Assembly (NCBI GenBank): GCA_046598345.1
Contig: JBKJIT010000004.1
Location: 265,226 to 329,225, forward strand
Direction: 5' to 3'
Source of the DNA: Minisyncoccia bacterium
Lineage (GTDB): Bacteria; Patescibacteriota; Minisyncoccia; Phycocordibacterales; UBA918
Length of the DNA: 64,000 nt
Of this stretch, positions 13,667 through 50,788 are shown one piece after another. The notes below the pieces were generated by a model. The model was given only the letters and a program-made list of their open reading frames with translations, did no database searches and was not told the origin of the DNA. Positions within the stretch are counted from its first letter, which is position 1; the number at the start of each line of letters is the position of its first letter. The position numbers and the translations under genes are program-made.

Positions 13667-13815
13667 AGATGCTTATAACGGTTACTAAACGTTAGAGTGC
13701 GTCGTCTTCACAAGGCATAGGGAAAGCTTGTGAAGACGGGCTCCGAAAATATAGTCACTACGCTCCTTATTTTCGGGCCACCCTTTTGTCACGAAAATTT
13801 GAGATTTTCATGATG

Positions 13816-13858
13816 GGTTTTTCTTTTATCCAGAAACCTGGATAAAAGAAAAACCCGT
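13816..13858. terminator. perfect 19-bp stem / 4-nt loop hairpin (GGGTTTTTCTTTTATCCAG aaac CTGGATAAAAGAAAAACCC) 45 nt downstream of gene 13902-15047
   Basis: Inverted repeat read directly. AU-rich stem closed by a GGG/CCC clamp; the flanking U-tract is imperfect. Confidence 0.5.
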
Positions 13859-23875: not shown

Positions 23876-24053
23876 GACTAAATCATAGCATGCGAGTTTA
23901 GAACCATCTGCAGTTGCGCGCACGTAGAAGTCACTAAACATGCAAATCTTGAGAAAAGTTCGAGGCGCAAGTTCTTTTGTGCATGAGCCGTACCCATGTA
24001 CGGTGAAAAGCAAAAGGACGCAGCGACAAAGAAATTTTCCAAGATTTCAAGGT

Positions 24054-25376
24054 TTAGGCTTTGTAGCTGACGTCAACGCCAAGTGCAATCAACTTCTCCA
24101 TATACCTCGCCACCTCATCGGCAATCTTTTCCTTAAGTGATAGTCCTCCCTCTTTAATATCTTCCTGAAGTCGCGCGTGGAAATCTACTTCTCCATTTAT
24201 CCCTGAGAGTCTGTCAGCAATTATCCCGGTGAGATTCTCACGCGTAAGTTTTGTAAGTTTTATATCATGAGTAAGTAGAAGGTACTCCCGAACACGCTCT
24301 GCAAACTTATGCTGTTCAAAAAATGCAGCGTCTGAATCATTATCACTTCGGAAGCGTCGCACGTCATCTGCCTGCTTCACGATCTGGACTGAAACATCAG
24401 CCATTTTTAGCGCAGTTTCCTTATCGATGCCTGCTCCCCCCTCATCATACCTTTTAACGAGCGCATCAATAAATAGTTTCTTATGAATTTTTCCCTGAAT
24501 GAGAAGATTGACCGCCTTTTCAAGACGACTGAGTTGGCTATACGAGTATTTCTGGGTTAGAAAATTGGTGAGACTACGGACCCGCAGCATATCAACAGAG
24601 TCGTATGGAAAAAGGCGAGCAAGCTGCTCAAGCTCCGTCACGATAGTTTCCCCTTCCATAACAGGCTTAATTTGTTTTCTCTGGGGATTTACCACCTCGC
24701 GAACAATAAATCCGTCTTTCAAATAATACACGCGATGTGCGTAAGAAAGGTGTGCGGCATTATGGGACACCATAATAATAGTGCGTTGATCAAACGTATT
24801 AATCTCGTCAATTTTGTCCATCACTTGCTGTGTAGAGACGGAGTCGAGGTTCCCTGTTGGTTCATCAGCCAATAGAATCTGTGGGTCATTCACCATAGAA
24901 CGTGCAACGGATACACGTTGCTGTTGACCTCCCGAGAGCATCGAGGGAATCTTATGAGAAACATGACCTACCCCGAACCGTTCAAGAAGCATTTGCGCAC
25001 GGCGTTCACGCGTTGCCTTATTCGCGTCACAAAAGATCATAGGAAGTGCTACATTATCGAGAACAGAAAGCGAGCCAATTAGGTTGAATGACTGGAAGAT
25101 AATTCCCATGATGTACCGTTGGAAATAGACACGCTCCTGGGGTGGATATGAGTAAATATCGTCACCACGAATAAGGAGAGTGCCGCCGCCAGGAGGTAGG
25201 GAGCCTTGGATTGCATACATCAGAGTCGATTTTCCTGAACCAGAACTGCCGAAGAGAATGATGTACTCCCCTTCGTAGATGTCCGTGTTTACATTCTGAA
25301 GTGCCTTGTACTCATTTGACTTCCCTTTGTTGTAGGTGATATCCAAATTTCTGCAAACTATCAAAGGCTTAGCCAT
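24054..25376 (-). CDS. ABC transporter ATP-binding protein (MacB/LolD-like NBD) with an unusual ~220-aa C-terminal extension
   Basis: Walker A GSSGSGKST, signature LSGGQQQRVSVAR, Walker B ILLADEPTGNLD, H-loop VSHN. Probable start MAKPLIV… (25376); the ORF is open to 25457. The C-terminal extension (VVNPQRKQ…VSYKA) is predicted helical and of unknown function. Confidence 0.8.
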   Translation of the reverse strand: MAKPLIVCRNLDITYNKGKSNEYKALQNVNTDIYEGEYIILFGSSGSGKSTLMYAIQGSLPPGGGTLLIRGDDIYSYPPQERVYFQRYIMGIIFQSFNLIGSLSVLDNVALPMIFCDANKATRERRAQMLLERFGVGHVSHKIPSMLSGGQQQRVSVARSMVNDPQILLADEPTGNLDSVSTQQVMDKIDEINTFDQRTIIMVSHNAAHLSYAHRVYYLKDGFIVREVVNPQRKQIKPVMEGETIVTELEQLARLFPYDSVDMLRVRSLTNFLTQKYSYSQLSRLEKAVNLLIQGKIHKKLFIDALVKRYDEGGAGIDKETALKMADVSVQIVKQADDVRRFRSDNDSDAAFFEQHKFAERVREYLLLTHDIKLTKLTRENLTGIIADRLSGINGEVDFHARLQEDIKEGGLSLKEKIADEVARYMEKLIALGVDVSYKA

Positions 25377-25589
25377 GGTACAAACATCTTTGGCGTATTT
25401 TTTCGTTGCTCGCTCGTTTGCTCCACGCACTGTAGGTTGACTACAGCTTGGTCGCAAGCCTCACGAGCGCCTTAAAATACACTCAAAGACTGATTGTCCT
25501 ATTGTATACTAATGATTCTCTATTTTTCATAATTCTCCACGTTGTTCAAGTAGATGTACACAATATCGTAAGCGTGTGGCGAGGAGCCG

Positions 25590-25672
25590 TCAGATACAAG
25601 GCGCTGAGCCGCGATGACACGAGGCGTACAGGGCGTACGGTGAGTGTCATCGCGGTGAGAGCAACGCCGTAG
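25590..25672. ncRNA. structured intergenic element D1 (nested hairpins), a repeat of 27319-27394
   Basis: ccGCGATGACAC-[gagg CGTAC aggg c GTACG gtga]-GTGTCATCGCgg. 12-bp outer stem and 5-bp inner stem. Conserved flanks gatacaaggcRctgagcc … agYaacgccgtagat. Confidence 0.4.
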
Positions 25673-25693
25673 ATGGCGGCTCCCCGCTGCACG

Positions 25694-27241
25694 TTAACCG
25701 CTGATGTTCTTAACCCATCCGAACGTCGACTCAAAGTTCTCAATAATGATATCAATAATGTTCTTTTCCTGAATAGGAGTAAAGAGCACAAAGTTTTCTG
25801 AATCGGCTTTATTCCCCGACTCGTCCTTACACGAAAGCCAGAATTGATACACAGTTGCTGGCGCAAACTCGACAATTACCTCCACGTGCTGTTCGCTGTA
25901 ACTTATATCTTTTGACTCTACTATTGTTGGATCAACTCCACCTACGATACCTTCACGGTACATCATGGTACAGAATGATGGCTCATCGGTGCTCCACTCC
26001 ACAATCGTCTGAATACGCGATTCGCCACCTGGGAAGAGCGTTGATTCGTTCGTGACATTTGAAATGATTGGCGGTTCGGTGTCTTTAACGGTAATAAAGG
26101 TAACCGGACTCGACTTTACTCGATCTCCACCGGCATTTTCCGCAATGACAAAGGCGACGTACCGAGTACCCAACGTAAGATCAGCAATACGCATTTGATG
26201 GGTAGATGCCAAAGTAGGACGACCTACAGAGTTCTGGATACCTGTTGTGAGATCCTGATATTCAATCGTTGCTTTTGCGGGTACTGTGGTATCCCATGCC
26301 AAGGTGGCAGAGTTCTCTTCTACTTTCACAATGCGCAGATTTCGAATCTCAGGAAGTGATGCTTTCGTGCGGAATGTATAGTCGAAGCTTTCTCCCAAAA
26401 TACCGATGGAATCCTTCGATCGAACCTTAAAGTGGTACTCAGTATATGGCTCTAGACCAATGAGACGAATTGAATGACTCTTCGTGTCACCATCAGTACT
26501 TGCCTGGGAGAACTCATACTGCCCTTCGACGTACGAATCTGCAGGACTAAACACCACTTCAGAGCTTGACTCACGATTGGTAGTCCAGCTTACGATTGCG
26601 CTTGTCGTTTCAACTTCAACAGTAGGAGGACCCACGATCGTAAGGTCTTCAGTAATACCCTGAATGGCTTTCACTGTTTCATTTAAAATCTCCTGCAGAG
26701 TTTCTGGAGACTGTATCTGCTTAATTTGCTCTATTACTTCTTCGGCACTCTGAGCTTCGGTTTGTGACTGTGATTCTGACTCTGATTCTGACTGTGACTC
26801 TGAGCCTTCCTGGAGCGTTTGATTTTCCTGTGTTTGTGTTTCCTTTCCTTCACCTGCCTCCGCGCCCACTTCGGGAGTTCCCTCGGTCAGCACTTTGTAG
26901 TTTGCAGAAATTCCCTGGTTGCCATCAAGGTCTGAAGACACTACGCGGAAGTAGTACGTGCGACCAGGTTCAAGGCCGTCGAGCGTAATTGAGTGTTCAG
27001 TTTTGTCGACTGCTGGTACACGCACAATGCCGTAGTCTTCCTGAAGACCGTAGTTAACTAAGGAATCAGCATCCTCGTCAGTCTCCCACGTCACCGTGAC
27101 ACTACTCTCATCGACAGTCGTAATCTGAACATTTGTAATATCTGGTGGTTCAGTGTCGGCCCCATGCACACTAGGAAGCTCCTGCACATATGAAACAAGT
27201 ACAAAAAGCGTCAGCGCTGTCGTTGCTAGCGAACGTAACAT
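25694..27241 (-). CDS. secreted protein with four fibronectin type III domains and an acidic SESE/SQSQ linker
   Basis: Signal peptide (…LPSVHG|ADTEPP). FN3 signatures (…TWETDE…YYFRVVSSDLDGN…; …VSWTTNRES…YHFKVRSKD…). Confidence 0.75.
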   Translation of the reverse strand: MLRSLATTALTLFVLVSYVQELPSVHGADTEPPDITNVQITTVDESSVTVTWETDEDADSLVNYGLQEDYGIVRVPAVDKTEHSITLDGLEPGRTYYFRVVSSDLDGNQGISANYKVLTEGTPEVGAEAGEGKETQTQENQTLQEGSESQSESESESQSQTEAQSAEEVIEQIKQIQSPETLQEILNETVKAIQGITEDLTIVGPPTVEVETTSAIVSWTTNRESSSEVVFSPADSYVEGQYEFSQASTDGDTKSHSIRLIGLEPYTEYHFKVRSKDSIGILGESFDYTFRTKASLPEIRNLRIVKVEENSATLAWDTTVPAKATIEYQDLTTGIQNSVGRPTLASTHQMRIADLTLGTRYVAFVIAENAGGDRVKSSPVTFITVKDTEPPIISNVTNESTLFPGGESRIQTIVEWSTDEPSFCTMMYREGIVGGVDPTIVESKDISYSEQHVEVIVEFAPATVYQFWLSCKDESGNKADSENFVLFTPIQEKNIIDIIIENFESTFGWVKNISG

Positions 27242-27318
27242 GTAATTAGTGTATCACCTACATGTTTCCCTCCTTTCTTCCGTTATTAACATCAACTTGA
27301 TTGAGAATGAGAATGCCT

Positions 27319-27394
27319 GAGATACAAGGCACTGAGCCACGATGATATGAGGCGTACTCTTTGTACGATGAATGTCATCGTGGCGAAAGTAACG
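27319..27394. ncRNA. structured intergenic element D2, a repeat of D1 with compensatory substitutions
   Basis: ccACGATGATAT-[gagg CGTAC tcttt GTACG atga]-ATGTCATCGTgg. Relative to D1 the outer stem shows two compensatory double changes (g→a with c→t; c→t with g→a) and one G·U wobble. The inner stem is conserved. Confidence 0.4.
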
Positions 27395-27417
27395 CCGTAG
27401 ATTAGGCATTATCACTC

Positions 27418-30400
27418 TCAATCACCGATGGCGTAGAAGATGTTCGTTCCGGTGTGTGCAACTCCAGCCACCCCCGACGGAATTGCAATACCCCAGTAGA
27501 GACGATCAGTAATGAGTGGAGTGGTGGACGTCGGTTTTGGTAGATTCAGTTCGTAGTTAACCGCTGATGTTGTGAGTTGCGTACAGTACACACAGGCACT
27601 GTATGTGAAGGTAGAGGTAGCATACTTTTCCTGTGTCGCAGGAATAACCGACGAAGCACCATCCGTGAGATCGGTACCTTGAATGGATACGTCAAGTGCA
27701 TCATTTCCAATATTTTCTACTGTCGTCGACGCATTGGTTGCACCTGTGTCACTATTCACCTCAAGAGCACCATATCCGATTGTACTATTAACGCTGATTG
27801 CGCGGAGCGTGAGGAGATCAATCGATGGTGCAGTTCCTGATGCTGTGGAGCCGCCGTCGTCACTCACACTCAGAGTTGCACGCCATGTTTCTCCCGCATA
27901 GGTACCAATGTCAGTTGGATCAGTATGATAGTAGAAATCAGCTGAGCAACTAACGTCACAAGAATTACCTGCACAATTACTAAACGTGCACTGCGCAGGT
28001 GCTGCGATATAGCAGTTGTTTGTGTTTGCGCTACATGAAGCCCCAACCCCGGAACGGTAGAACGTTGTTGTTGCAACATTAAGATCAGCATATCCGTTTT
28101 GATCAGTAACGGTACCGGTAGCAGTAATGGTTGAGGTTGCTCCGGGACTAAGGCTGATATCCATTCCAGCGTTCAATGAAAGTGACGTCACTGTTGGTAC
28201 AAAGACGAGTTCAAGCTCCGCAACACGTACGTACGAATCAATGGGACTACCACCGTCGCTTACACGGAGGCAGTAGTTTGAATCAGTTACATCAGTAGTC
28301 GAGGTGATTGCATACTCAACTTCTGTGTACTGGTTGGCGCCAACTCCAAAGCTTTGCGTGGAATTTGATGGATCCTCAATAATTTGTCCGGTAGTGAATG
28401 TTCCTGTGCCACCCAACACGTCCGTTGTCGAGGCCTGGTTCGCAAATTGGGAAGAGGAGACCATGCAGATTGGAGATCCGGTACAACTTGCCTGCACAGG
28501 TACGCTCGCATATGACGCAGAGGAAACAGATTCGCAACTTGGTGCATTACCTTTTGCTGCATACTCAAGCCGATACTGATCAGTGATAGCGAGTCCAGTG
28601 TTTTCAATGAGGAAACGCGGGCGCACGGTAGTATTTGCACTTATCCCAGAGGCCTTGGTGTTCAGCGCCGCAAACCAAGATGCACCTCCTGAGACTTGCT
28701 CGTATCCAAGTGTAGTTGTTGGTTCCGTTCCAAGAAGTGTTCTAGCAGAGTACACATCCCACGCACCGTGCTGCTCCCAGAAGGTAAAGCCGGTACCTCC
28801 AGTTGTGTAGGTGCCGTCTGTCACTGAAGTGGTAGCAACGAGTGCTCCATCTTTATAAAGGAACACTGCGATAGTGTCGTCAGTATCCCATTCAACCTCT
28901 ACCTCATACCATCCCGTTGCATACGTGAGTGTTGAGGATGCGAGCTGTGTTGTACCGGTATCACTATCGTTGTCGTACACGTCACGAGAGATCGAGATTC
29001 TATCAACACCGAACTGCTCGAGACATATACCATAGTTATCATGGAGCGTACCAGGAGACTGTACCCCAAAGAGCGTACACGTTTCGTCTCCGCTTGCTGG
29101 TGCAGATGTGTCTACGTACTTCATGAAGCGAAGCTTACTTCCCTGTGCGACCGAAGCATCAAAACGATGGATACCATGAGTGGTACGATCTCCCACCGTT
29201 ACTGCCTTTAGTCCATATGATCCCTGGTACGCAAGTGCAACACTAGTCGTGAACTTACTTGTATCATTCGCATACTCCGTGATGTTGTTATCTTCAAAAT
29301 CATCGTATGCAACAAACGTTGTGGTACCAACACCCCCGTCCGAGACTCCTCCATTTCCGTAGTACATGTAGAGTGTTGTGTTCGCGGAAGCAGTAAGTGA
29401 TGGAATTTTTACCCAGACAGTCGCTTCTGTGCTTGCGGTGTACGCGTCACGCACATAACTGAGCGTTGTTGTACCACTCGAATCCGTAAATCGAAGGTCG
29501 TCAAAGTCTGTCTGCATATCACCGTCGTATGGGATATCTACTTTCACCACCGCATTGGTATACGTCGTCGCATCCGCATTCACAACCGTGACACGCTTAC
29601 GTTTTGACCAGTTTTGGTCATACCACTCACTATTTGGTACACTCTCCCCCCCGTTATCATTTCGCCAGCGATACCCGGCCTGCTGGGTCAGGAGACACGT
29701 ACTGTCAGACCAGCGAATGGATCCGCATGCTGTAGCACCATCCACGTCGTACGCCTCACCTGCGAGATTGCCGCGGTGCGTCGTAAACGTCCACGCTGAA
29801 GGTGTGGTGCCCGTAAGTGTGATGTTTGTTCCGGAAATAGCAGTTGTGGTTGCAAAGCGCACACCAGTTATGACTTGGGATGCATTGTAGTTTACGGTCG
29901 TAGAGCTTACCGTAAGAAGTGTTCCGCCGTTTTGATCAAGTTCAAAATCTCCGTTCGACAATGAGGTAATTGTGGTATTTCCGGTGAGTGTTAGCCCATT
30001 CGGATTGAGATTCCTAAAGGCATAATTAAGTGCATTGAGCGTTCCACTATCCATTCGAATACTGTACGTACCACTTCCTTGGTTACGAACAGTCGTTGTA
30101 GCACCTGACCCTCCAAGCATATGAAGCGTGCTGCCGGTAAAGGTGGTCGTCGCGCCATTTGCAATTCGCACGGTGACTACACGTTCTGTACCTCCAAGTG
30201 CAGTCCCGTCGAAATCAGTTGCGTAGCTCCAATAATCGGTTCCCGTCGTGCGCTCATACTGACCATAGATGTTGAGCTCTCCGTTAACGGCAGCATGATC
30301 CTGTGAATACAGTGAGCTTAGGCTATCTTCCACTGTGGTGGTTGCCTGGCTATTCCATGTGCGAAGATCAGTATTATTTCCAATAAGGAGAATATTGTAA

Positions 30401-33400
30401 GATGTTCCTCCTGCAATACTCGTATTAATGGTATACGGCAGACCAGTTGTGATGCGGAGTGTGCTTCCCGTCCACGTACCTCCAACAAGGTTCGTAAACA
30501 CACCCTGCACGGTAAGCCGGACGCCGGAGCCAAGAGTAAAGGTACTTGCGCTCGTCAGTGAGAAGTTCGACGTGGTTGTTGCGTTATTCGTAATCGTATA
30601 GCCTCCACTTGGAGCTGCAATTGAAACAACGTTGAACGTCGAGCTTCCTGGATTAATGGTTTCACCCACATCGCTGGAGTTGAAAAGGATCGTGCCACTT
30701 GCGCTATTAAATGCTCCACCGAGATTGAGGAACGAACCACCAATAGCCATGGTCCCGGTCGCCAATGTTGCAGTTCCCTGTTCAATGCGTAGTGTTCCAA
30801 GGAGGTCCACATTTGTGTCAGTGAAAAGGTATTTTCCAAGTCCTGCAAAGGTTACTGAATATAGATCAGAGGTTGACGCCGTTACGCTTGTCGTCCCCGT
30901 ACCGGAAGCATTGAGGCGCAATGTTCCACTATTGTGCGTAAAGGTACCTGCAGTAATGAAGTCACCGCCAATCGCGAGGGTTCCACTTGGTGCGGTTACA
31001 GTACCTGAGAGAATGGTGTAATGCTGTGTTGAGGTTGCGTTCAAATCCTGGTACGTCCAACTACCACTTCCTGCAAAGGTCGTTGTACCAAAATTCGAAC
31101 CATTAGTCCTAATAGTTTCTGCGGCAGCACTCGTGAAGCGCATATGTCCACCATTTTGGATAAATGTCCCGCCTGTATTACTGAGTGAACCTAAAATTGT
31201 TGTCGTACCTGTAGGTAAAGTGAGTGTTCCCTGTGTAATGGTGAGATCATTCGCAAGATCGAGCGCCGCATTTGTAACGGTCCAACTTCCAGAGCCATTT
31301 AGAGTAAGGTTGTAGAGTGCATACTCATTGGTATCGATCGTGCGCGCTGCCCCATTCGTCGTAAACGTAAATGTAGAAGTCTCGTCATCAATAGATGCCC
31401 CACTACCACTTATGAGGCTTCCTCCAATTGAGTGGATCTCGCTTAGGGTTGCGTCAAACACCGCATTCGTGAAAAGTTCAAGCGTACCATCATAAGGAGC
31501 TCCCGCACCTCCACCCGAAAGGGTGACGTTTCCATCGGGTCTAAACGTCTTTCCATTCCAAACAATAAGTTTTCGATCTGCAGGGAGCGTGAGTGTATCT
31601 GACCCAGCATCCACCGCAGTGAACGGTATGTCAGCGTCATCAGACGAATCCCAGACCGCCATATCAGCAATGGAAAGTGGGTCGGTATCCTCGTGACGCA
31701 CGATAATCCTATTTTCATAGAGATCCATATTGGCAACACTTGAAATCAAATCCTCCGAAACTACTGCTGCCTTTTCCGATTCTCCATCAATATAGACAAT
31801 GAGCGAATCACCAGGGCTGTACGTTACACCAGGGATTGAATACAGCCCACTGCCTCCATTGCAGCTCGTCGTGAAGCTCGTGAGCCCCGCCACACGTAGG
31901 TGAATATTTGCCGTGCTGCCATCACATACCGTTGACACCGTAGAACCTTCGTCGCTGTACACGCGACCTGAAATGGTGACTGCGGCAGCACTATCGTCCC
32001 ACACCACATATCCCGGGTCACCATCAGGGTCAACGTCGTATGATTCTCCGTCAATCGATCCACTATGGTTCGTGAAGCGCCATGAGGAAACTGATGTTCC
32101 TGTTGCAGTGACGTTGAATGCTGAAATGCCCGTTGAGGTACCAAACGTATTATTCGTAAATGTCTTCGCAGGATTTTGATTAATGACATTTCCACCCACG
32201 GTAATCGCACTACCTCCACTTTGCGAAACTACAAAGTCTCCGTAGGAGAGACTTACGATGTTTGGTGTTCCGGAGAAGACAAGGCCAGACGCATTAAGAT
32301 TTCGCGTCTCGTAATAGGACATGGTGGTCGATGCGCTGCCCCCGACGCGGAATCCATATGTGCCAGCACCCTGGTTTTGAAGTGTGGTTGAAGCACCGGA
32401 AATTCCCAGTACGCTCAATCCTCCACCCGTATACAGTGCGCTTGAACTGGACGCGAAGTACACATCCACCTTTCGGCTACTGCCTCCAAGTACTGTTCCA
32501 TCAAAGTCAGTTGCGTAGCTCCAATAATCGGTTCCCGAAGTCTTTGCGTAGCTTCCATATATATAGAGTGCGCCATTCACGTTTGCGTGATCCTGTGAAT
32601 ACAGAGACCCAGTGCTTGCTACGGTGGTAGTACCGGCACTCGAGTTCCACATTCGAATTTGTGTAGTTCCACTTATGGTAAGGGTACCGTACGTATCAAT
32701 CACCGACGAAGTGTTAATTTGGTAGTTCCCTCCGCCGTAGAGATGTAATGCAGAATTTGTCCATGTTGTAGCAGCACCACCCAGGCTGTTAGTGAATGTT
32801 CCCCCGACCGCGAGTGTGGCGGCGGGATCAACTGTAAAGCTTGTTGCATTCGTCAGTGTAAACGCTGTTGTTGCGGTCGCGTGTTCAGAAATACTCCAAG
32901 TGCCAGCAGCGTTTATTGTTACGTTACTGAACGAGGAATTTCCTGCTGCGATAGTTTTCGTGCCGACTGAGTCAAAGGTTACGGTACCGCCACTTCCCGT
33001 GAAGGTGCCATTATTGTCCCAACTTCCTCCCACCATAAAGGATGCGCTGTCACTTCCAATAAGCGTACCAAACGATCCGATTGTTACATTTCCGTTTACG
33101 TCGAGAGCGGTGTCATTCGTCGTAACTGTAAGTGTTGACGTTGCTCCCGCGCCCACTGTGAGATTATTCAAAACCACAATTCCGAGACCCGTAGTGGTAA
33201 AGGTTGGCGAACTACCCTGTGCATTCACATCTACATTGTAGTAATTGGTGGAGAGTACGTTTGAACCTGCAGTCCCGCTGTAGCGCACCGTGCTTGTACC
33301 TTCAACAAAACTTCCAGTTTCTACAAACACCGTACCTGCTCCCTGAAGATTCAAAACTCCACCCCCGGGTACAAAGAAGTGCGCATTTCCGATCGTCAGT

Positions 33401-36400
33401 TTGCCTAATATGGTAGTCGTCGCTGTGGTTGCAGAGGTCGTCGTGCCTACTGATGTCCCATTCCCGAGGACCAAGTTTCCAAAAGTCCATGCCTGTGATC
33501 CTCCGAGCGTATTCGTACTCGCGATTGTAGTCGTACCACTACCGAGCGAGAGGAGTCCATTGCCGTAGAGTGATCCATTCGCAAGCGAAATATTTCCTGT
33601 GCCGGTGACCGTTCCTGTTGATACATATATATTCGCCGTTGCAGATGCATTACCGTTTATGTTCCAGGCGCCTCCAACGCCAGTAAAGTCGAGTTCATTA
33701 AATCGTACCGTCTCACTATTTTCTGTCGAAATCGTTTTACCGCTCGTCGTTGCTGTCATTATGATCGTCGTCGACGCAGGCACGTAGGTAGCATTAATGT
33801 CCTGGAATATTGAACCGCCGATACTGTACGTAGTTGTACCTGCTCCCGTGAAGATTGACGCATTGTCCAAATGGAGTGAACCGTCATAACTTGTTCCTGT
33901 ACCTCCACTTGTAAGTGTTACGGTTCCTCCTGGTGTAAAGGTGGTTGTCGCCCACACATGAAGCTCAGTATTGGCCTGAACGAGGAGTGAGTTCGGTGAG
34001 CCGGTCGCTGCAGTGAACGGAACGTCACTGTCGTCCGTACTGTCATAGAGCGCCATGTCAGCGATGGTCATCGCATCGACATCTTCATGGCGGACAATGA
34101 CTCTATTAACCATGAGGTTGAGATCACTGATGTCTGCAGTAGGAGTCTTCGTAACGGCAACGGCACGCTCGCCGTTACTTGCGCCATTTAGGAAAACGGT
34201 AAGTGTAGGATTTCCAATGACAACCACTCCAGGAATACTGTAGACTCCACTTCCGTTACATGCACCGTCATACGTGCCGCCGTTTGAAACGACCACGCGC
34301 ACTGGAGTACCCACCCCACACGTCGGTGCACCGAGTGGAGTTGTTTCATCAGCACCATACACCGTACCCGAAACGGTGATCGTGAGGGAACTGTCGTCCC
34401 ATCGAATTGAGCCAGGATCACCCGTGTCATTATCAAACGCTTCCCCATCAATATTCCCGGATGACTCTCTGAACCACCAATATGTTGTCGGCGTGCCATC
34501 TGTTTGCGTAATGTTTGTAGCAGCAATTGCTGTTGTCGTAGAAAAGTTCACACGATAGATTTGGAGTTCCGCATTTGCGTTTACGGTAGTAGATGACACG
34601 GTGATGCCCGTGCCCGCAGCAATGCCCGGAATAATCTCCCCATCTGATAACGCACTTACATGCGTCGTACCACTGAGTGAAATGCCACTCGCTCCTAAAT
34701 TACTGAAGCTATAGAATGCAGCGGAGGTAGTGCCGTTTGCCACACCGATCGTGTAGGTGCCACTTCCTTGGTTTGCAATACTTGTCGTCGCAGTCGATGT
34801 CCCCGTTATCGACAGTGTGCTTCCAGTGAAAAGTGCTGAAGAGCTACTTGCAAATCGAACGCGCGCTATTCGGGTAGAACCCAGAAGTGAGGTGCCATCG
34901 AAATCAGTTGGTGCACTCCAATACTCTGTGCCACTTGTACGTTCATATCCGCCAAAGATGTATAGATCTCCATCAATGCCATTATGATCTTGCGAATAGA
35001 GCGAACCTGTACTGTCGACGGTATAGGTAGAGGAAGTGGAATTCCACATACGTATATCGGTATTTGCACGAAGGCGGAGTGTGCCGTAGGCATCTCCTAA
35101 GGTATTCTTCGTATTCAAGCTGTACGCTCCCGCCTCAAGTGAGAGTGTTGAACCACTCCAGGTGGTGGAAGCTCCCCCCACGCTATTCGTAAACGTACCA
35201 AAAACAGCAAGTGTTGCTCCGGACGACAGCGTGAACGCTGATGAGGTTGCAAGCGTGAAATTATTTGAGGTCGTTGCGTGCGAAGCTACGGTGAAGCCGC
35301 CGCCCACACCATTAATTGTGACGTTGTAGAGATTTGAATTACCGGTGGTTAAGGTCTTCCCGAGACTCGTTGCGTTAAAGAGCACCGTTCCACTGTTGTG
35401 GGTGGTCGTCGCAGCATTTGTAAATGATCCTCCAAGGGTGAGTGTTCCCCCAGGGAGCGTTACTGTTCCTCCGGAAACAGTAAGATCTCCAACTGCAGTA
35501 ACGTTCGTGTCTACAAATGACCAACCGCCAGAACCAGTGAATAGCAGTGAACTAAACGAAGAATTTGTATCAATGGTTTTTGTGGTCGCACTGGTAAATC
35601 TAACCGTACCACTGTTGTGAGTAAACGTACCCGCAGAGTTCGTGAAATGACCACCAATAGAGAGCTGAGCTGAAGGGAGTGTGACACTCCCCTGCGTAAG
35701 AACAAAATCATTTGAAGTTGTTGCGCTTGTATCAAGGAAGGACCAACTGCCACTTCCCGTGAAACGAAGATTGTAGAAAGCGTTCGTGAATACAGTTCCG
35801 CTCGCAGCAATAGTTTCTGCAGTTCCTGCCGTCATGTACACGAGCGCGTTATTGTGTGCAAATGTGCCCCCAACACTATTCCAAGAACCAGCAAGCGTTG
35901 TAGTGCCAGTTGGCATGGTGACCGTTCCTGTTGCAATCGTAAGGTCATTCGAAATCGTGAGATCTGCTTCAGTAAACGCCCACGCACCGCCTTGACCGAT
36001 GAAGTTCAGATTGTAGAAGGCATCTCCACCTGCCGTAATAACTCGATTTGTCGTCGTGGCATCAAAATATACCGTACCACTTCTGGCGACAAACGTGTTG
36101 TGATTAACCCAGTCACTCATCACTGTTGTGTTGTAATTGCCCGTTGTTACATCAAAAATGTCGTCTACTCCAATCGTAATGGATTGTGCTTTCACATTGG
36201 TGAGTAGTGCCAGAGTTTTTGATGTTCCGTCAATTACTACCCTACCGATATTCTGCAGTGTGGCATTTGCGTCGCTCCAATTTGATGTGCCACTACCGTC
36301 AAAAGTGGTGGTTCCTAATCCCGTCCAGATACCATTGATTGCATTTGAAAGTGAACCGCCAACAGTGATTCCTACTGTACCTCGCGCGAGTGTTCCCCTC

Positions 36401-39400
36401 GTGACCGTAAGCGCATTATTTACATCAAGAGGTGTAATCAGATTCCATGTTGCAGCACCAGTAGTTGTCCCAAAGGTAAGATTATAAAAGGATGGAGAAA
36501 GTGCCCCAGTCTCATCAATTGATTCTGTTGTTGAAGTCGCCGTAAAGATGACAGTGGAGGTACCTGCAGTTAATGTGGCGTTGTTGTCCCATGAACGTGT
36601 AACGTACATCGTATTTCCATCAAGTGTTGTAGTGCCGTTGTTTTCAAAGTAGTTAACATCAACTGTGCCCCCTGGCCGATATGTAGAACTTGCCATAACA
36701 TACAATTCCGCAGTACCGCACGTAGTCTCCACACACATGTCTAGAATTGTACCGGTTCCATCAAAGAAGAGATCTTCGTCATTCGTAGCATCATACAAAG
36801 CGATCTGCGCATTAGTAAATGCAGTTGTCGTCGCGTCATTTGAGCCAAGGGTGAGATGTTGCTCATAGAGACGCATACCTGACATATCTCCAACGCCATC
36901 ATAATGTGCAACAGAAACCGCTTCATTCACTTCATTTGCACCATTTACGAATACAGTGACCACATCTCCAGGAGACGCATTTACATTAGGAATTGACCAA
37001 GCTCCAGCTGCAATTGTGCCGGTCTTGCCAATTTGCAATGACCCGTTTAGTGCCACCGCTACTGATCCTGCGGTTACATTTGTTGACTGATCGTACGCCT
37101 GAGCAGTCCCAGAGAGAGCAATCCCAGCAGACCAGGTAATAGTCCAATCAGAAAGTGTAGGACATGTGCCACCACTACAACTCATATTTGCTAAGGGTCG
37201 TATGAGACTGTATGTGGAAACCGGAAGCACGTTGGTTAGATTGATAGGACTTATCGTTGTGCCTACTGAATTTCCTGGAATGAGTGAGTCTGGTATAAGC
37301 TTCCAGCTGCTTGACGCTGTGTCGTAGTATTCCACCTGGTGCAAAATGCTCGAACCGCCGGGCTCACTATCAATCCATGACATTTGTTGGAAATACGGAC
37401 CAGAGCCATCATAGAAATTGATCTCTGTTCCCACAACAGTTCCACTCGTCACGGGATTTTTCGCCGTAATCATAAACGGCTCCTTAAAAGGAACTGCGCC
37501 CGCGGCACCGTTTGTCTCAAGCGTTTGCGCTGGAGCCCACCAGTCGCTACTCGTTGAATAGGTAAAATCATAGCGATCAGTTGAGGTCGCATACGACATC
37601 ACCTGGATAGTGTTGTCTCCTGTACGTCTTGCTTGTACGCGAGGACCTTTTCCTGTTGTGGTTGCCGTTACTTCCCCGAGCCACGCTACGCCATCCCACG
37701 TACGCGACTGAATGTTTGTTGTGTCACTATATACCGCCCGTATGTATCCATCTCGCGAACCTCCTACTTCAAAAATACAATCAATAGGACGATCTTCATA
37801 GATATTACCAGCAGTAAGGCCGGCTGTTTCAAGTTCAATCTGACCGGTAAATGCAGCGCCTGTCCAGCGAACTGCTCCTATGTCTCCATCTTGGTCGACG
37901 TAACATAATGCCATGTTGTCACTGCCATCATCAGCAGCCATGGAGCCGGCTTCAAAATCATCTCCCAACGCAACGGTTGCTGTGGCCGTCCACGCAGAGC
38001 CATTCCACGCACTCCAGGCAAAGCTTGCAGCTGTACCATTTGATACTGCGATGACTGCCTGTCCCCCGCTCTCCTCATATTCTGCAGCAATACCTTCATG
38101 GTTGGCCTGATTCATAGACCCCAGTCGAGCAGAGTTTCCCCATGCAGAGCCAGTCCACACGCGGGCCTCATACCCAGCACCACTCGTGTCCCTGGTTACT
38201 GCAATAATTTCATCCGAGGTTGGATCAGAAATAAGCTTTATCCATCCGCAGGTGTTACCGTTCACAAGTCCAATGGTTGCACCTCCCAGTGTCCAACTCG
38301 CGCCATCCCATATCCAATAACTTGGGTTGCTATCCCCATCGCAGGTAACAACGAGCGCATCTCCCGATGTTTGTTCATACGCAATATCAAACCCACGCAT
38401 GTTCGTGTTTGATAATGCATTTGTAACTTCCTGAAGATCTCCCCAACTACCATTCTGATACACCTGTATATTCACATCCCCATCAGTGCCTACCGTTCCC
38501 AAGAGATACTCGTTTTCACTTGGTGCTGAACGTGTAACGACCCAGGTGATAGCAGCACCAACATCAAGCGCGCTGGCCTCTGCCGACCAGGAAGACCCAC
38601 TCCAGACACGGTACTGCGGAGTTGTCAGTAATCCTTCTGCGTATGCAATGAGCGATTCAGTTGATGTCGTTGCTACAGTTACCGTGTTTCCTGCTTGCGT
38701 AATTGCACCAGAAAGTACATCCGTATCAAACTGTGATTGGGTAGTTTGGAACCAAGTTGAAACGGTCACGCTCGTATCAACGGTAATACTTTGTGGATCG
38801 GTATAAAAGGAATACTCATTACTACTGAGCGGATCTTTCGCTCGGATACGCCACCAATACGTAGAACCGTTCGTGAGTGCATCTCCAGATTGCAACGTGA
38901 ATTGGATAGTGTTTCCAGAGGTAAATGGATTTAGATCAGCTCCATTCGTGATATTCACAAATCCGAGACTGGAAGACGAGTTACGTGTGGTAGATGCAGT
39001 AAAGGTGTACGTGGTTGACCACTGAATCTCGTATTCAAGATCATCGCTTTGCGGGTCAGTGGTTACGAATTCAAACGTTGGCGTAGTGGTACTAACTTTT
39101 TCATTATCAAAAGGAGCATTGATGGTCGGTGTCTCAATGCGATAGCCCCATGAAAGTGTCCAATCGGAAAGCGTTGGAGACCCACCGGAATTCGTAAACA
39201 CAGCAACAATTCGGATAATTCGGTATGTCGAGACATCCATCGAAAGAAGGCTCACACCCGACGTGTCGAAGCCAGTGCTATTCCCCGTGAGCGCAGTGTC
39301 TGGCACATTAATCCACGTCGCTGATGCATCACTATAGTACTGGATGCGGTATTTGATATCTCCAACTGTTTCGTTATCGACGAAGGAAAGTGACCCCCAC

Positions 39401-42400
39401 GCGTTTCCCTGCGATCCATCGAGAAAATCAATTGCTGAAGATGTTGTCGTGCCAGTTGTTGAGCCAGTCGCAAGCTGCACTAAGTCGGTGACCAGAGCAT
39501 CCGTATCAGAGAGTGTGTCCGTATCAAACTGCTCCTCGGTTGTTTGGAACCATGTTGAAACTGTCGCGCTGGTATCGATAGTGAAACTGTATATCGTTGA
39601 CCATTCTCCCCACGTATTTGATCCAACAGTATCCTGTGCACGTACACGCCAATAGTATGTTGTGTTGTTGGTGAGTGCGGTTGTTGGTGAGTATCGTATT
39701 GTTTCACCGTTAGTGTATGGGTCCTTATCAGCGGGGGTATTAATATTCTCAAACAGTGTTGAGTTTGAAATCGTATTATGATCAATATTAGCCGAAGAAA
39801 AAGTGCGATCGTCATCCACCTGGATTTGATAAGAAAGGTCGTCAGCCTCCTCATCCGTTCCCGCAAATTCAAATCGAGGGAGCGTTGTTGACGATTTTTC
39901 ATTATCAAAAAGTTTTGAGAGAATGGGCGCTTCTGGTGCACTATTCGTGAGAAGCATTGGATACTGGCTGTACGCAAAGAGCGTCGTGTCATCAGACTTA
40001 ACCATTCGAAAACAATAGAGCGTCTCTGCGAGTGCGCCATTATGTTTAAGCACAAAATCCCACTCTCCCTCCTGTCCGATCCCGATCGAAGTAGGAAGAA
40101 CCACCGTCGGGTTTTGCTCTTCATATGTTTCGAGTATGTCAGTGCCCGTTAAGGTTGAGGTGGAAAGTGTAGCGCCATCACTCGGACTCGCATTGTTGTA
40201 ACCAGTCCATACAGCAGAGGAGGTAGCGGAACCCACATCGGTCCACGTACCCACTGTAGTACACACCGAGGTTGTCGTTCCAAATTGAAGCTTGAAATCC
40301 TCGCCGGTCGTGGTTGAGTTGCGTACATTAAGCTGCAATCGTAACCGAACGACGTCATTGTATCTAAGGGGAGTAAATGATGAATCAATAGCTTCGTTTT
40401 CTGCTACGTCTTCAGTACTTGTGGGCCAAGCATCACTCACGGTCGCTGAGTTCACATTTGTATACCAGCGATACGCAGACTGTGTATAGATTGGAACCAA
40501 TCCATATCGTTTTGCAAAAATAACCGTTTGGTATGGGGGAGTGTTTGATGCAATGGTGAAACCACTAACATCGATGGCATGGGTATGCGATCCACTCGAT
40601 CCCGTTGCACCCGAGCGGGCATTATCAGTCGATGCTGTTACCGCTGAAACAACTCCTGGCATATCAGCATGTGTGTGTGTATCGCTTCCACCGGTTGTCC
40701 CGTACGTCGATGCTCCCTTGATGTACCGATTATAAAAGGGATCTCCTGCTTGCCCTGAACGATTGAGCCAGCCTGCAGGAGGTGTATCGCTCCACATCGA
40801 GATAGACGTGAGAGGCGTGGCCGTAGCAGAGGAGGAAGTTGCAAAAATAACTTCGATATAGGGCGGTTCTTGACTTAAAGCAGGAGTAGAGCTGCTCACC
40901 GTATGTGTATGAGATGCCGCCGCCGCAGTGACCTGAGTACCTCCTGTCCTTGAGTTAACGGTCGCTCCACTTGCAGCATCTGTTGTTCCACTCACACTAT
41001 GGGTGTGAGTGTTGGTTCCCGCGCTCGTGATGGTATTTTCTCCATATGGATAGCGACTATCGAGAGGGGTGTATTGTGCCCACCCGGAAGGCAGTACACC
41101 ATCGAATATTAAGACTGCCCCCGCAGGAATTGTTCCTGGATCTCCTGCGCTATTATTTTGAATGAAACGAAGCTGACGATAGGCAGGGAGTGTACTTGTG
41201 CTCCCAATTGTTGGCGTAACTGTGTGGGAGTGAGCGGTAATACTCACGAAAGCACCGGCATTATTTTCCGCATTCGTGGCGGTACTTGCATTCACAACAG
41301 CACTGGCTGTGTGACCCGATGTAGCCGTTCCTCCAGTGGTGCCATACGATGCATCTCCTTTAGGGAACCGCTGATAAAAAGTGCTTGTTGAGGCACATGA
41401 AATACATGTCCAGCCTGAGGGAATAGTAGAAGTGCCGGTCCAGAAGAGAATCATGCTTCCCGTTGCATCAGAAGCAATCTGCCATGCACGATGTTCGACA
41501 AAGTCTGGCACGGGAAGTGAAGCCTCCCCACTCGTGTCAACGATTTCTTCCGGTTCATTTGTAACAGTTTCGTTTGAAACACTCGGTGTTACATCTTCTA
41601 CAGTACTAGTCGCTTCATCTGGAGTAATTGTTTGAGTTGAGACATTCTCTTCTTCTATCAGTACTTCTTCTGTAGGTTCGATGGGTTCAGTGTCAGTTTC
41701 TAAGGAGGCAGAAATATCAGTAGGTGAGGAAACGATTTCAGGTTCGGTACCTTCCTCTTCCACTGCCTGATTACCATCTTCTATGGCATCCGTTTCATCA
41801 ATGGGTGTGAAGATGGTTTCAGATAAGAGCGGTTCACCGTTTGTAGGAAGCGTTTCCTCGATAATAACCCCTCTGTCAACTCCCCGCACTTCTGCCGGCC
41901 CGAGAGTATACAGATACGGAGAAATGTCTGGAGCATCAAATGTGTAGCTAAACGTTTGTGACTCGTTGGCACCTAGGTTCACATTAAAAGTAAGAATGTG
42001 TTCGCTCTCGTTTGTTGTTATCTCCGCGTCAGTACCGCTTACTACAAAATCTCCCGGCACGTGTTCAATGAGTGTGCCCGTAAATGCATTCACTGAAGTG
42101 AGGGTTATCTCCATCGGATATTCCGAAAGTGGATAAATACGTGTTGGGCCTTCACGCATGAGTGTTATTTCATGCGCTGTGACAACCTCCACAGTATCGC
42201 TCGTGTGAGAAAGAACATTTCCTTCATAGTCGACACGCTCTACATACAGCTCGTAGGTACCTGGCACGTTCGGCACAAAGGACGCGGTGTAGTCAGGTAC
42301 GTCAATCACATTATTTCCATTACAGAATCCAGACGGGGTGATAGGTGCACGTGAAATGAAATCAGTTGGATCAATAATGTATAGCTCAAGATTTGCGTCA

Positions 42401-44181: not shown

Positions 44182-44188
44182 TTATAAG

Positions 44189-44222
44189 TATAGCCCGCTA
44201 AACGTTGATTTAGCGGGCTATA
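44189..44222. terminator. perfect 14-bp stem / 6-nt loop hairpin (TATAGCCCGCTAAA cgttga TTTAGCGGGCTATA) between the cohesin gene stop and the giant gene start
   Basis: Inverted repeat read directly from the sequence. Lies 21 nt downstream of the 44243 stop on the minus strand, followed by an A/U-rich tract. Confidence 0.5.
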
Positions 44223-44242
44223 CTGTGGATTCGAAAGTGATT

Positions 44243-46247: not shown

Positions 46248-46485
46248 ACAGCTTCATTTTACGGCAAAGATGCAAAATACTCGCAAGACTTATACACAAA
46301 GTGCTTTCCTCTCGGATTTAATGAGACGAAGTTAGAACTTAGAAATACATGCGGGGGTTAGAATTTTGTGCAGAGATGCCCCAGATACGAGACGAACAAA
46401 GAAAACAATATGAAGCGTATACTCATACGATGAATATTATTTTCTGCAGTGGGGCGAAGTAGATGGGGTATATTCTGCGCAAAAA

Positions 46486-48339: not shown

Positions 48340-48506
48340 GGTTAATTCTATTGTACCGCACTGTGACTCTAGAGATGTACAGGACTGAGTATAATCGTGA
48401 GTGTATCCATCTCTTCGCCGTTTCATCATATAGACACGACATGCATGTGCATATGCACACGCAAAACAAGTAAAGCAATTGAGTAGAGAGTACTATTACT
48501 CATAAT

Positions 48507-50702: not shown

Positions 50703-50788
50703 AACAATATAGCGTAGCCAAAGCCAAACTTTCGAACAAAAAACAACACTCCTAAACGGAGTGTTGTTTTTTGTTCGAAAGGACAGAG

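Follow-up and report, generated by a model that had tools for sequence, protein, structure and literature searches.

Correia elements, discovered in 1986-88, are the textbook miniature transposable elements (MITEs) of bacteria and the first bacterial MITE, and they have been regarded as specific to Neisseria. In this study we analyse a structured element that occurs in two intergenic copies on either side of an FN3 gene in a 64,000-nucleotide stretch of the genome of a Minisyncoccia bacterium (assembly GCA_046598345.1, contig JBKJIT010000004.1, positions 265,226 to 329,225; hereafter, the window), and we assess its relationship to previously described bacterial repeats.

The Correia element comprises a directional core and terminal repeats with a TA duplication, is bound and cleaved by RNase III, and has no demonstrated transposase (PMC2649163, PMC2229807). 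Its published ends read TATAGTGGATTAA...TCAGGACAA and ...CCGTACCGG...TTAATCCACTATA (PMC9778887). Binding or cutting of the Correia hairpin RNA by RNase III alters transcript stability (PMC2649163, PMC10969869), and Delihas considered a transposase for these elements to be without experimental support (PMC2229807). A second group of repeats was described in Geobacter metallireducens, in which 24 'predicted regulatory short RNAs', Gmet_R1001-1024, carry the central palindrome GRCGTAGCGCTGCTACGCC (Aklujkar et al. 2009, PMC2700814). These intergenic, multi-copy elements of ~112 nt show a palindrome GRCGTAGC..GCTACGCC followed by TCCGCG, with flanks ATCTC.GCGTTG and GCCTTGACC (PMC2700814). Finally, repetitive extragenic palindromic (REP) sequences are extragenic hairpin repeats located mostly within 20 bp of the 3' end of the upstream open reading frame (ORF), sometimes overlapping its stop codon, and are thought to form RNA hairpins (PMC3733652).

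Sequence and structure of the two window copies

The two copies form 84-nt blocks at positions 25591-25674 and 27319-27402, both on the + strand and offset by 1728 nt, which are identical at 68 of 84 positions (81%). Their left flank motif GATACAAGGCRCTGAGCC occurs exactly twice in the window against 0.08 occurrences expected by chance, and the homology has sharp edges, since the 25 nt beside the blocks match only at the random level (7/25 and 8/25, or 28-32% in the arms). The 16 differences between the blocks comprise five in the terminal loop, two in the internal loops, one at an edge and eight in the stems. All eight stem differences preserve pairing, as three compensatory double changes (copy 1 versus copy 2: 25603/25662, G/A with C/T; 25611/25653, G-C to A-U; 25620/25644, C-G to U-A) and two wobble switches (25618, C-G to U.G; 25656, G.U to G-C), with no disruptions.

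A preliminary description of the same DNA had recognized two structured intergenic copies and had located them correctly, but set their ends 2 nt (25672) and 8 nt (27394) short. The outer stem that it gave as 12 bp is present, its actual length being 13 bp with four differing pairs. Within those 12 bp its two compensated changes and one wobble are correct, and to these a third compensatory pair can be added (25603/25662), formed by the variable purine and pyrimidine (R and Y) of its own flank consensus. The inner 5-bp stem CGTAC/GTACG is, as described there, the same in both copies, whereas all five loop bases differ. An outer helix of ~20 bp, further copies within the window and the antisense position of the structured strand with respect to the genes go beyond that description.

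Folding likewise confirmed that both copies share the same structure, far more stable than that of shuffled sequences: on the + strand the core regions (103-105 nt) reach -65.1 kcal/mol (z -7.8) and -50.6 kcal/mol (z -9.5), against -54 and -38 kcal/mol for their reverse complements, an advantage of about 11-12 kcal/mol for the + strand. The outer helix closes each block into a rod of 125-130 nt (Table 1), and its sequence is unrelated between the copies yet paired in both. As their arms are unrelated, copies 1 and 2 are not a segmental duplication. They share the core only: a core of ~83 nt may have been placed, as a copy, into two distinct hairpins, or gene conversion anchored at the junction motifs may have passed one core on to the other.

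A core shared across bacterial phyla

A scan of one genome per species for the pattern ATACAAGGC-N45-75-AACGCCGTAGA identified at least 119 loci, with lengths clustering at 78-83 nt. A covariance model (CM) validated 94 of the 99 loci searched and, with extra copies nearby, gave 119 hits in all, so that the further copies expected if the pair were more than a simple duplication were found, over 100 of them in other genomes. The family spans at least 12 phylum-level lineages. According to the record titles, its hosts include many Desulfobacterota, with several copies per metagenome-assembled genome (MAG), together with Myxococcia, Acidobacteriota, Nitrospiria, Scalindua (Planctomycetota) and Gammaproteobacteria; Pelotomaculum, Selenomonadales and Borkfalkiaceae among the Firmicutes; Spirochaetes (Spirochaetota) and Bacteroidales (Bacteroidota); and Omnitrophota, Opitutales (Verrucomicrobiota) and two groups of the candidate phyla radiation (CPR), Peribacteria and Kaiserbacteria.

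Read from base to tip and back, the rod consists of the outer helix, tandem G.A, UAC/GUA, an AA bulge, GGC/GCC, variable helices with an AAC bulge on the 3' side, a GA-containing internal loop and the apical module GGCGUAC-loop-GUACGUC. Its directional core of ~82 nt reads, on the + strand of the window, 5'-GAUACAAGGC, variable helix, GA-GGCGUAC-loop-GUACG-GA, variable helix, AACGCCGUAGAU-3'. The whole rod measures 105-190 nt and the sequence of its outer repeat is specific to a lineage or even to a single copy; across the family, the arms differ in sequence yet always pair.

The selected secondary structure that had been proposed from the two window copies is strongly supported by the assembled family. 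Double changes are seen at 38 of 43 pairs in the alignment of 119 copies; paired cells make up 81.5% (57.4% in shuffles), and the covariation score is 0.553, compared with 0.170 in shuffles (0/500 reach the observed value) and 0.07-0.11 in slid controls, all of which should be read bearing in mind that the seed pattern fixed the junction motifs, that related copies were counted repeatedly and that the alignment was fitted to the model. The junction helix itself falls into covarying subtypes, UAC/GUA, UGC/GCA and UUC/GAA.

At the gathering threshold no Rfam 15 family matched the window or 18 family loci, and focused searches at E up to 5-10 gave none that covered the elements; at strict and permissive thresholds together, 23 family loci were examined besides the window. 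This result excludes the known ribozymes and riboswitches as well as 6S, SRP and Y RNAs. The plasmid database contained no match to the element, and viral contigs contained none to the window-specific pattern and only two to the general one. A first 14-mer scan gave chance hits only, and a literature search by sequence string returned only the human U6 promoter. A conserved small ORF behind a GGAGG-like motif was also considered, and inspection found no conserved start codon in the loop; the element is without coding capacity and without a linked gene.

These findings refute another alternative, according to which ordinary terminator hairpins at gene ends were duplicated locally and covary by chance. 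Plain long hairpins do end other genes of the window, in the same kind of position as the rods, but the same 82-nt core occurs with strong covariation in more than 100 genomes of many phyla, the arms of copies 1 and 2 are unrelated and no U-tract accompanies the window copies. A terminator scan detected none at these copies, in whose arms neither an A-tract nor a T-tract is found. The suggestion that they act as a terminator or attenuator for the upstream genes is unsupported, because they lack a U-tract and the strand selected for folding is antisense to those genes.

Several members show a modified architecture. At L142 (6859-7067) and L159 (Scalindua SCAELEC01) an insert of ~110 nt parts the 5' arm from the core, and insertions may be favoured at the arm/core junction. 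L142 also carries, ~55 nt upstream of the arm, a group II intron D1-D4 fragment (RF02001, 62 bits); a link with group II introns was rejected, the adjacency of this one Scalindua copy looking incidental. In other loci the 5' arm is preceded by a tandem second copy, arm A resembling arm B (L122, L147 and others of BS2bin.18; L123, L144, L178 and others; L196 and L208). Arms A and B are both complementary to the 3' arm C, which therefore has two alternative partners. In Acidobacteriota (L143, L150, L170, L177, L215, L237 and L239) the rods reach ~190 nt, with an outer second module, cGUAGCGAGGc / GCCGCAGUAGA, that resembles the core junction, and the ends of these rods carry TA-flanked RCCCGCATTTCTCAC terminal repeats.

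Relationship to Correia and Geobacter elements

Real Correia elements, recovered from Neisseria-derived viral contigs, read TATAGTGGATTAAATTTAAATCAGGACAAGGCGATGAAGCCGCAGACAGTACAAATAGTACGGCAAGGCGAGGCAACGCCGTACTGGTTTAAATTTAATCCACTATA and share with the family TCAGGACAAGGCG...CCGCAGACAGTAC-N5-GTACGG...GCAACGCCGTACTGG, the alignment being anchored by ACAAGGCG, CCGCAGAC(A)GTAC-N5-GTACG and GCAACGCCGTA. The directional core TCAGGACAA(GGCG) / (CAACGC)CGTACCGG is present in variant form, as CAGATACAAGGCG ... CAACGCCGTAGATGG in the window and as TCAGGACAAGGCG ... CAACGCCGTACTGG in Correia. The covariance model R1, which was built from 31 non-Neisseria copies and contains no Neisseria sequence, matches eight Correia elements from end to end and without a change of orientation (19-27 bits, E 2e-5 to 6e-3). 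In each of the nine Correia elements that were folded, this strand is again the more stable one. The 26-bp Correia terminal repeat, TATAGTGGATTAA(CAAAAA/ATTTAAA)..., was found nowhere in the window with fewer than 3 mismatches and nowhere beside the elements, the 11 matches at 3 mismatches comparing with 18.8 expected by chance. Judged by their sequences, the window copies are not strict Correia elements, but members of a wider superfamily that shares the core.

The resemblance to the Geobacter elements extends to the whole layout. When reverse-complemented, Gmet_R1001-1024 show the same rod, with a GGUCAAGGCG...CAACGCAGAGAU junction and a CGGAGGCGUAGC...GCUACGC apical module, and the - strand of the window follows their published arrangement as ATCTACGGCGTTGC ... 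ACCGTACGCCCTGTACGCCTCG ... GCGCCTTGTATCTG. On these grounds they are clear members of the same family. Our literature search found no later papers citing these elements. Four of them, Gmet_R1010-R1013 (992-995 kb), bracket three polyamine/lysine-pathway genes within 3 kb in both orientations (PMC2700814, Additional file 4), a local cluster that resembles the one around the window FN3 gene.

Strand preference and genomic placement

The two strands of the element are not equivalent. Pairs of the G.U/U.G type outnumber those of the A.C/C.A type by 147:24 in the outer helix and by 93:17 in the apical stem. Folding without an alignment points the same way: in 106 of 115 copies the strand reading ATACAAGGC... 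is the more stable one, with a mean gain of 10.6 kcal/mol. The favoured strand carries purine-rich loops, tandem G.A, and AA and AAC bulges, and at the second apical pair G.U is the commonest state (41 of about 92 copies). Since the known mutation biases on the coding or leading strand would produce the opposite asymmetry, we read it as selection on a single-stranded form: the fold is kept by selection on one strand only, as RNA or as single-stranded DNA (ssDNA).

With respect to the gene at whose stop codon the element lies, the favoured strand is the antisense one. An antisense gene of at least 100 codons has its stop codon within 60 nt of the core 3' end, mostly at 10-30 nt, in 54 of 99 usable copies, compared with 17 of 95 copies in which a sense gene stops within 60 nt of the core 5' end (Fisher p=1e-7); hairpin base-to-stop distances taken from minimum free energy folds are unreliable because the flanks pair spuriously. 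All four antisense copies of the window obey this rule. The one Geobacter element described in the text of PMC2700814 agrees with it too, as it was published gene-sense at dapB-dapL and its reverse complement is the family strand. Across the family, the neighbours are unrelated housekeeping genes, e.g. SecY, ClpP, RNase E/G and ATP synthase, and all-against-all BLASTP of 1320 neighbouring ORFs revealed no recurrent protein family. The hairpin downstream of the target of a diversity-generating retroelement was considered and rejected, the adjacent genes being unrelated housekeeping genes and no reverse transcriptase being present.

Strand-specific folding is also a property of ssDNA sites for recombination or transposition, such as attC, IS200/IS605 ends or REP-like sequences, and the element might be one of these, folded into a hairpin on one strand, whose tyrosine or HUH enzyme would be encoded elsewhere. 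A strand-specific fold with its bulges always on the same sides, arms that vary in sequence and always pair, a position right after stop codons on the antisense strand, as for attC bottom strands, and a GC skew that is negative for the strand of the element (68 of 103 loci) would all fit such a site. We nevertheless consider it improbable: there are no RYYYAAC/GTTRRRY boxes and no integrase or HUH gene in the window, the FN3 gene between the two copies keeps its position in relatives free of the element, and G.U frequencies of 10-12% are more RNA- than DNA-like. Moreover, HUH enzymes leave no target duplications, yet one lineage has 6-bp ones, as described below.

Mobility and the nature of the element

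FN3 orthologues were identified in 80 metagenomic loci (61-79% identity), and the order giant gene - FN3 gene - ABC gene was found in all of the dozen loci whose flanks were read. The element was detected by CM in only 4 of these 80 orthologous loci. It is certainly absent from the closest relatives (L243, L244, L247 and L248), because in these only 1-5 nt separate the FN3 stop codon from the ABC start codon. The Desulfobacterales MAG BS2bin.18, which represents a recently expanded lineage, holds ten near-identical copies of a ~153-bp unit with imperfect terminal inverted repeats, GATGAACTCGTAAAAAGT / ACTTTTTACGACGCCATC. In the eight copies of this type with both flanks available, seven from BS2bin.18 and one from a related MAG, the flanking 6-mers match at 5.25 of 6 positions within a copy versus 2.70 of 6 for non-cognate flanks (permutation p=3e-4), and these matching 6-bp flanks are target-site duplications. 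Besides being multi-copy and non-coding, the element thus varies in its presence between orthologous loci. Members of the Acidobacteriota and Desulfobacteraceae groups are commonly flanked by TA, which could belong to the ends; in the window, TA stands at the hairpin base of copies 1 and 3 (in one case inside the stop codon) and not of copies 2 and 4. Orthologous copies in the MAGs L144 and L178 differ by compensatory changes, which speaks against a purely selfish element and suggests either constraint in place or conversion from active copies. The orthologous empty site in L234 (6571-6630) contains two direct copies of GATGGnnnnGTAAAAAG(G)T, the arm motif of BS2bin.18-type elements, the first of which overlaps a TGA stop codon.

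Taken together, the results lead us to consider the window copies as probably a Correia-like MITE, belonging to the same superfamily as Correia/NEMIS and Gmet_R10xx. Several points weigh against this interpretation. Neither a target-site duplication nor a conserved terminal repeat could be demonstrated for the window copies. Conservation lies in the centre and variability at the ends, the reverse of an ordinary MITE with conserved transposase-binding ends. No autonomous parent or candidate transposase was found in the window or in the loci fetched around other copies, nor did these loci contain a related autonomous insertion sequence with the same ends or a split 'master' copy with an ORF in its loop, the one candidate being a second complete copy. 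The CM scores of the Correia elements are modest and came from loci pre-selected by a pattern overlapping 8 nt of the conserved motif; in addition, the copies cannot be counted as phylogenetically independent, and Desulfobacterota prevail among them. Lastly, the RNA-like signature of the antisense strand and the compensation between orthologues fit a cellular RNA function equally well.

The latter point is the basis of a less likely alternative, a structured non-coding RNA family in which each copy would be transcribed on its structured strand, antisense to or converging on the adjacent gene, and would end at its own terminal helix. Such an RNA would bind a conserved cellular partner or block antisense transcription entering the gene, with MITE-like spread a secondary matter. 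The hallmarks of RNA on the selected strand (abundant G.U pairs, which are also the most frequent state at one apical position, loops with tandem G.A, and bulged purines) and the compensatory change between orthologous copies are those expected of it; in 53 of 103 copies the 5' arm carries an A-tract and the 3' arm a T-tract, as in a bidirectional intrinsic terminator; a gene-sense variant in the 5' untranslated region (UTR) of the ABC gene indicates that rods can sit inside mRNAs; and the Geobacter members were annotated as predicted regulatory short RNAs (PMC2700814). Against it, no conserved promoter precedes the copies, promoter scans at those of the window remaining at chance level, and dozens of copies lie beside unrelated genes. 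The sporadic presence among orthologous loci, the target duplications of one lineage and the status of the related Correia elements as established mobile repeats are likewise more in keeping with mobility.

As a Correia-like MITE, the element would spread by means of an enzyme supplied in trans, in parallel with Correia, and its conserved core would be a single-stranded structure, RNA or ssDNA, that the machinery for copying or recognition reads. The reverse complement, as part of the host mRNA, would still form a strong 3' hairpin which, by analogy with Correia, could be a target for RNase III binding or cleavage and thereby determine where transcripts end and how stable they are. The orientation bias may, more speculatively, reflect survival, the weaker hairpin with its pyrimidine mismatches being the one placed in the operon transcript and the stronger one lying antisense.

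Further copies and surroundings in the window

Two further copies and a related rod were found in the window (Table 1). The diverged copy 3 retains the apical module and has GAUACGAGAC...GGCGAAGUAGAU as its junction; folding yields -45.6 kcal/mol on the + strand versus -33.3 kcal/mol on the - strand, and the base of this copy lies 2 nt from the stop codon of a dockerin/Ig gene (46486-48429, - strand). In copy 4 the base, GUUCGAGGCGC...GCGACAAAGAAA, is degenerate and the apical module, GAGCCGUAC-CCAU-GUACGGUGA, is canonical, with folds of -42.0 (+ strand) versus -30.1 kcal/mol (- strand); 5 nt separate this copy from the ABC ATPase stop codon (24054), and locus L246 carries an orthologous copy behind its own ABC gene. 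All neighbouring genes are on the - strand, and all four + strand copies are antisense to them, each with its hairpin base 0-5 nt from, or overlapping, the stop codon of a - strand gene; the genes abutted code for a 5587-aa giant protein, the FN3 protein, the dockerin/Ig protein and the ABC ATPase.

The related rod combines the family junction AAGGCGC...GCAACG with a different interior of ~50 nt (GAGGCUUGCGACCAAGCUGUAGUCAACCUACAGUGCGUGGAGCAAACGAG) and folds at -49.9 kcal/mol (z -6.2). It matches the CM weakly (13 bits, E 0.24), its L246 counterpart (4743-4848) reaching 31.5 bits; the interior is ~90% conserved between the window and L246, and the arms differ. As it has no Rfam match, this rod may be a distinct structured leader. 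In the ORF list, the ABC ATPase gene (24054-25457) begins at a TTG inside the rod; its true start is the ATG at 25376, since orthologues and the gene call of a Logan contig (440 aa) agree on it.

Table 1. Coordinates of the element copies and their parts in the window (CM, covariance model).
Feature	Position	Strand	Details
Copy 1, complete rod	25568-25698	+	fold -85.3 kcal/mol, z -8.9; CM 78.3 bits, E 8e-22
Copy 1, conserved core	25593-25674	+	
Copy 1, junction, 5' side	GA 25593-94; UAC 25595-97; AA bulge 25598-99; GGC 25600-02	+	
Copy 1, junction, 3' side	AAC bulge 25663-65; GCC 25666-68; GUA 25669-71; GA 25672-73	+	
Copy 1, variable helix	25603-05/25660-62 and 25608-20/25644-56	+	second segment is the 13-bp stem
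Copy 1, apical hairpin	25625-29/25635-39	+	
Copy 1, outer helix	about 25571-25592 with 25675-25693		ends at FN3 gene stop codon 25694-96
Copy 2, complete rod	27298-27424	+	fold -69.5 kcal/mol, z -10; CM 82.1 bits, E 5e-23
Copy 2, core	27321-27402	+	every copy 1 core coordinate +1728
Copy 2, outer helix	27298-27320 with 27403-27424		3' arm holds stop codon 27418-20 of the 5587-aa gene
Copy 3, diverged	46364-46484	+	CM hit 46373-46475, 24.4 bits, E 7e-5
Copy 4, degenerate base	23941-24049	+	CM hit with filters off 23953-24040, 14.5 bits, E 0.09 (weak alone)
Related rod, opposite (gene-sense) orientation	25385-25490	-	ABC ATPase 5' UTR

Other genes of the window end in plain, perfect palindromic hairpins of 16-24 bp (44187-44224, 50729-50781 and 13809-13858). 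Two of the three have A/T-tract flanks, they occupy the same kind of site as the rods, and they look like ordinary bidirectional terminators of the host genome. A motif G(G/A)TACACT, 7-25 nt upstream of the FN3 start (27242-27262), is kept in every orthologue checked and stands at the same position in L244, L246, L247 and L251, with no Shine-Dalgarno sequence visible; it may be a -10-like box of a leaderless or short-leader transcript. The 5587-aa protein is encoded by a single ORF (27418-44181, - strand), and the window also holds an ORF of 2091 aa. With several cohesin/dockerin/Ig-domain proteins, a type IV pilus cluster and giant surface proteins, the gene content is typical of small-genome, CPR-like bacteria, to which the host presumably belongs. 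Neither a transposase, an integrase nor a reverse transcriptase is encoded in the window, and a tRNA/tmRNA search of it found none.

Implications

The directional core of Correia belongs, according to these results, to a structured family that extends across phyla, far beyond Neisseria, and the hitherto uncharacterised Geobacter 'short RNA' family of 2009 is now tied to a known element. A conserved centre with variable ends, under selection on one strand, shifts the question to what reads the core, and comparing the genomes that carry it with the enzymes that they encode could identify this partner. It is possible, though we put it forward only tentatively, that a pan-bacterial 'Correia superfamily' has its functional centre in the conserved core and not in the terminal repeats, the core being a single-stranded RNA or ssDNA structure which is read by a widely distributed machinery or is itself catalytic, and which rides in many outer hairpins, including terminators and other MITEs. 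If that were true, identifying the partner of the core would explain Correia movement and could uncover a new mode of transposition guided by structure, or an antisense gene-end RNA of a new class. For annotation, the family is a well-supported candidate for Rfam or Dfam, neither of which currently covers it, and in small CPR-like genomes it accounts for the long intergenic spacers and the over-extended ORF starts seen at gene ends.

Comparison with known systems

Bidirectional intrinsic terminators share with the family the gene-end site and, in about half of its members, arms with an A-tract, a GC stem and a T-tract; they differ in that the 'loop' would here be a structured 82-nt module and not one of 3-8 nt, and in the lack of a T-tract at the window copies. 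Integron attC sites are alike in a structure conserved above arm sequence, strand-specific folding, bulged bases and an antisense position after a stop codon. They differ in their R and L boxes and integrase, in flanking a cassette and in lacking the strongly conserved central sequence of the family. An attC site or gene cassette was rejected, as RYYYAAC ... GTTRRRY boxes are absent by inspection and no integrase is encoded in the window, and the FN3 gene is not a cassette because its position is kept in relatives without the element.

Among the functions initially listed for the window copies, a 'REP-like element' comes closest, insofar as these are dispersed non-coding hairpin repeats; REP anatomy proper is not present. 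REP, BIME and REPIN sequences are also extragenic hairpin repeats at gene 3' ends, but REP sequences are lineage-specific, RAYT-linked palindromes of 20-40 bp with a GTAG or CGTC foot tag (PMC3733652), whereas the family described here measures 105-190 nt, carries GUAG inside the junction helix and shares its core across phyla. On account of this mismatch a REP/RAYT system was rejected; the window encodes no Y1 transposase. The Gmet_R10xx elements are closer, being intergenic or intercistronic (e.g. between the co-transcribed dapB and dapL), and are distinguished by another junction subtype and by the opposite orientation in which they were published.

The closest well-known counterpart is Correia, likewise a non-coding imperfect palindrome (105-157 bp), found in more than 100 copies per genome at intergenic sites near genes (PMC2649163, PMC2229807, PMC5039591), with a core bounded by a ...CAG-GAC-AA-GGCG end and a CAACGCCGUAC-YGG end, a central GUAC-N5-GUAC hairpin after CCGCAGAC, and A/T-tract arms. 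The window copies differ from it in arms unrelated to TATAGTGGATTAA and devoid of the 26-bp terminal repeat, in a junction of the AUAC/GUAGA type instead of GAC/GUAC, in a 13-bp variable helix missing from the Correia short form, in the lack of an IHF-site insert and in a host lineage unrelated to Neisseria, apparently of the CPR. Weighing these likenesses and differences, we find that the element fits best among the Correia-type MITEs, as a new variant that extends across phyla.

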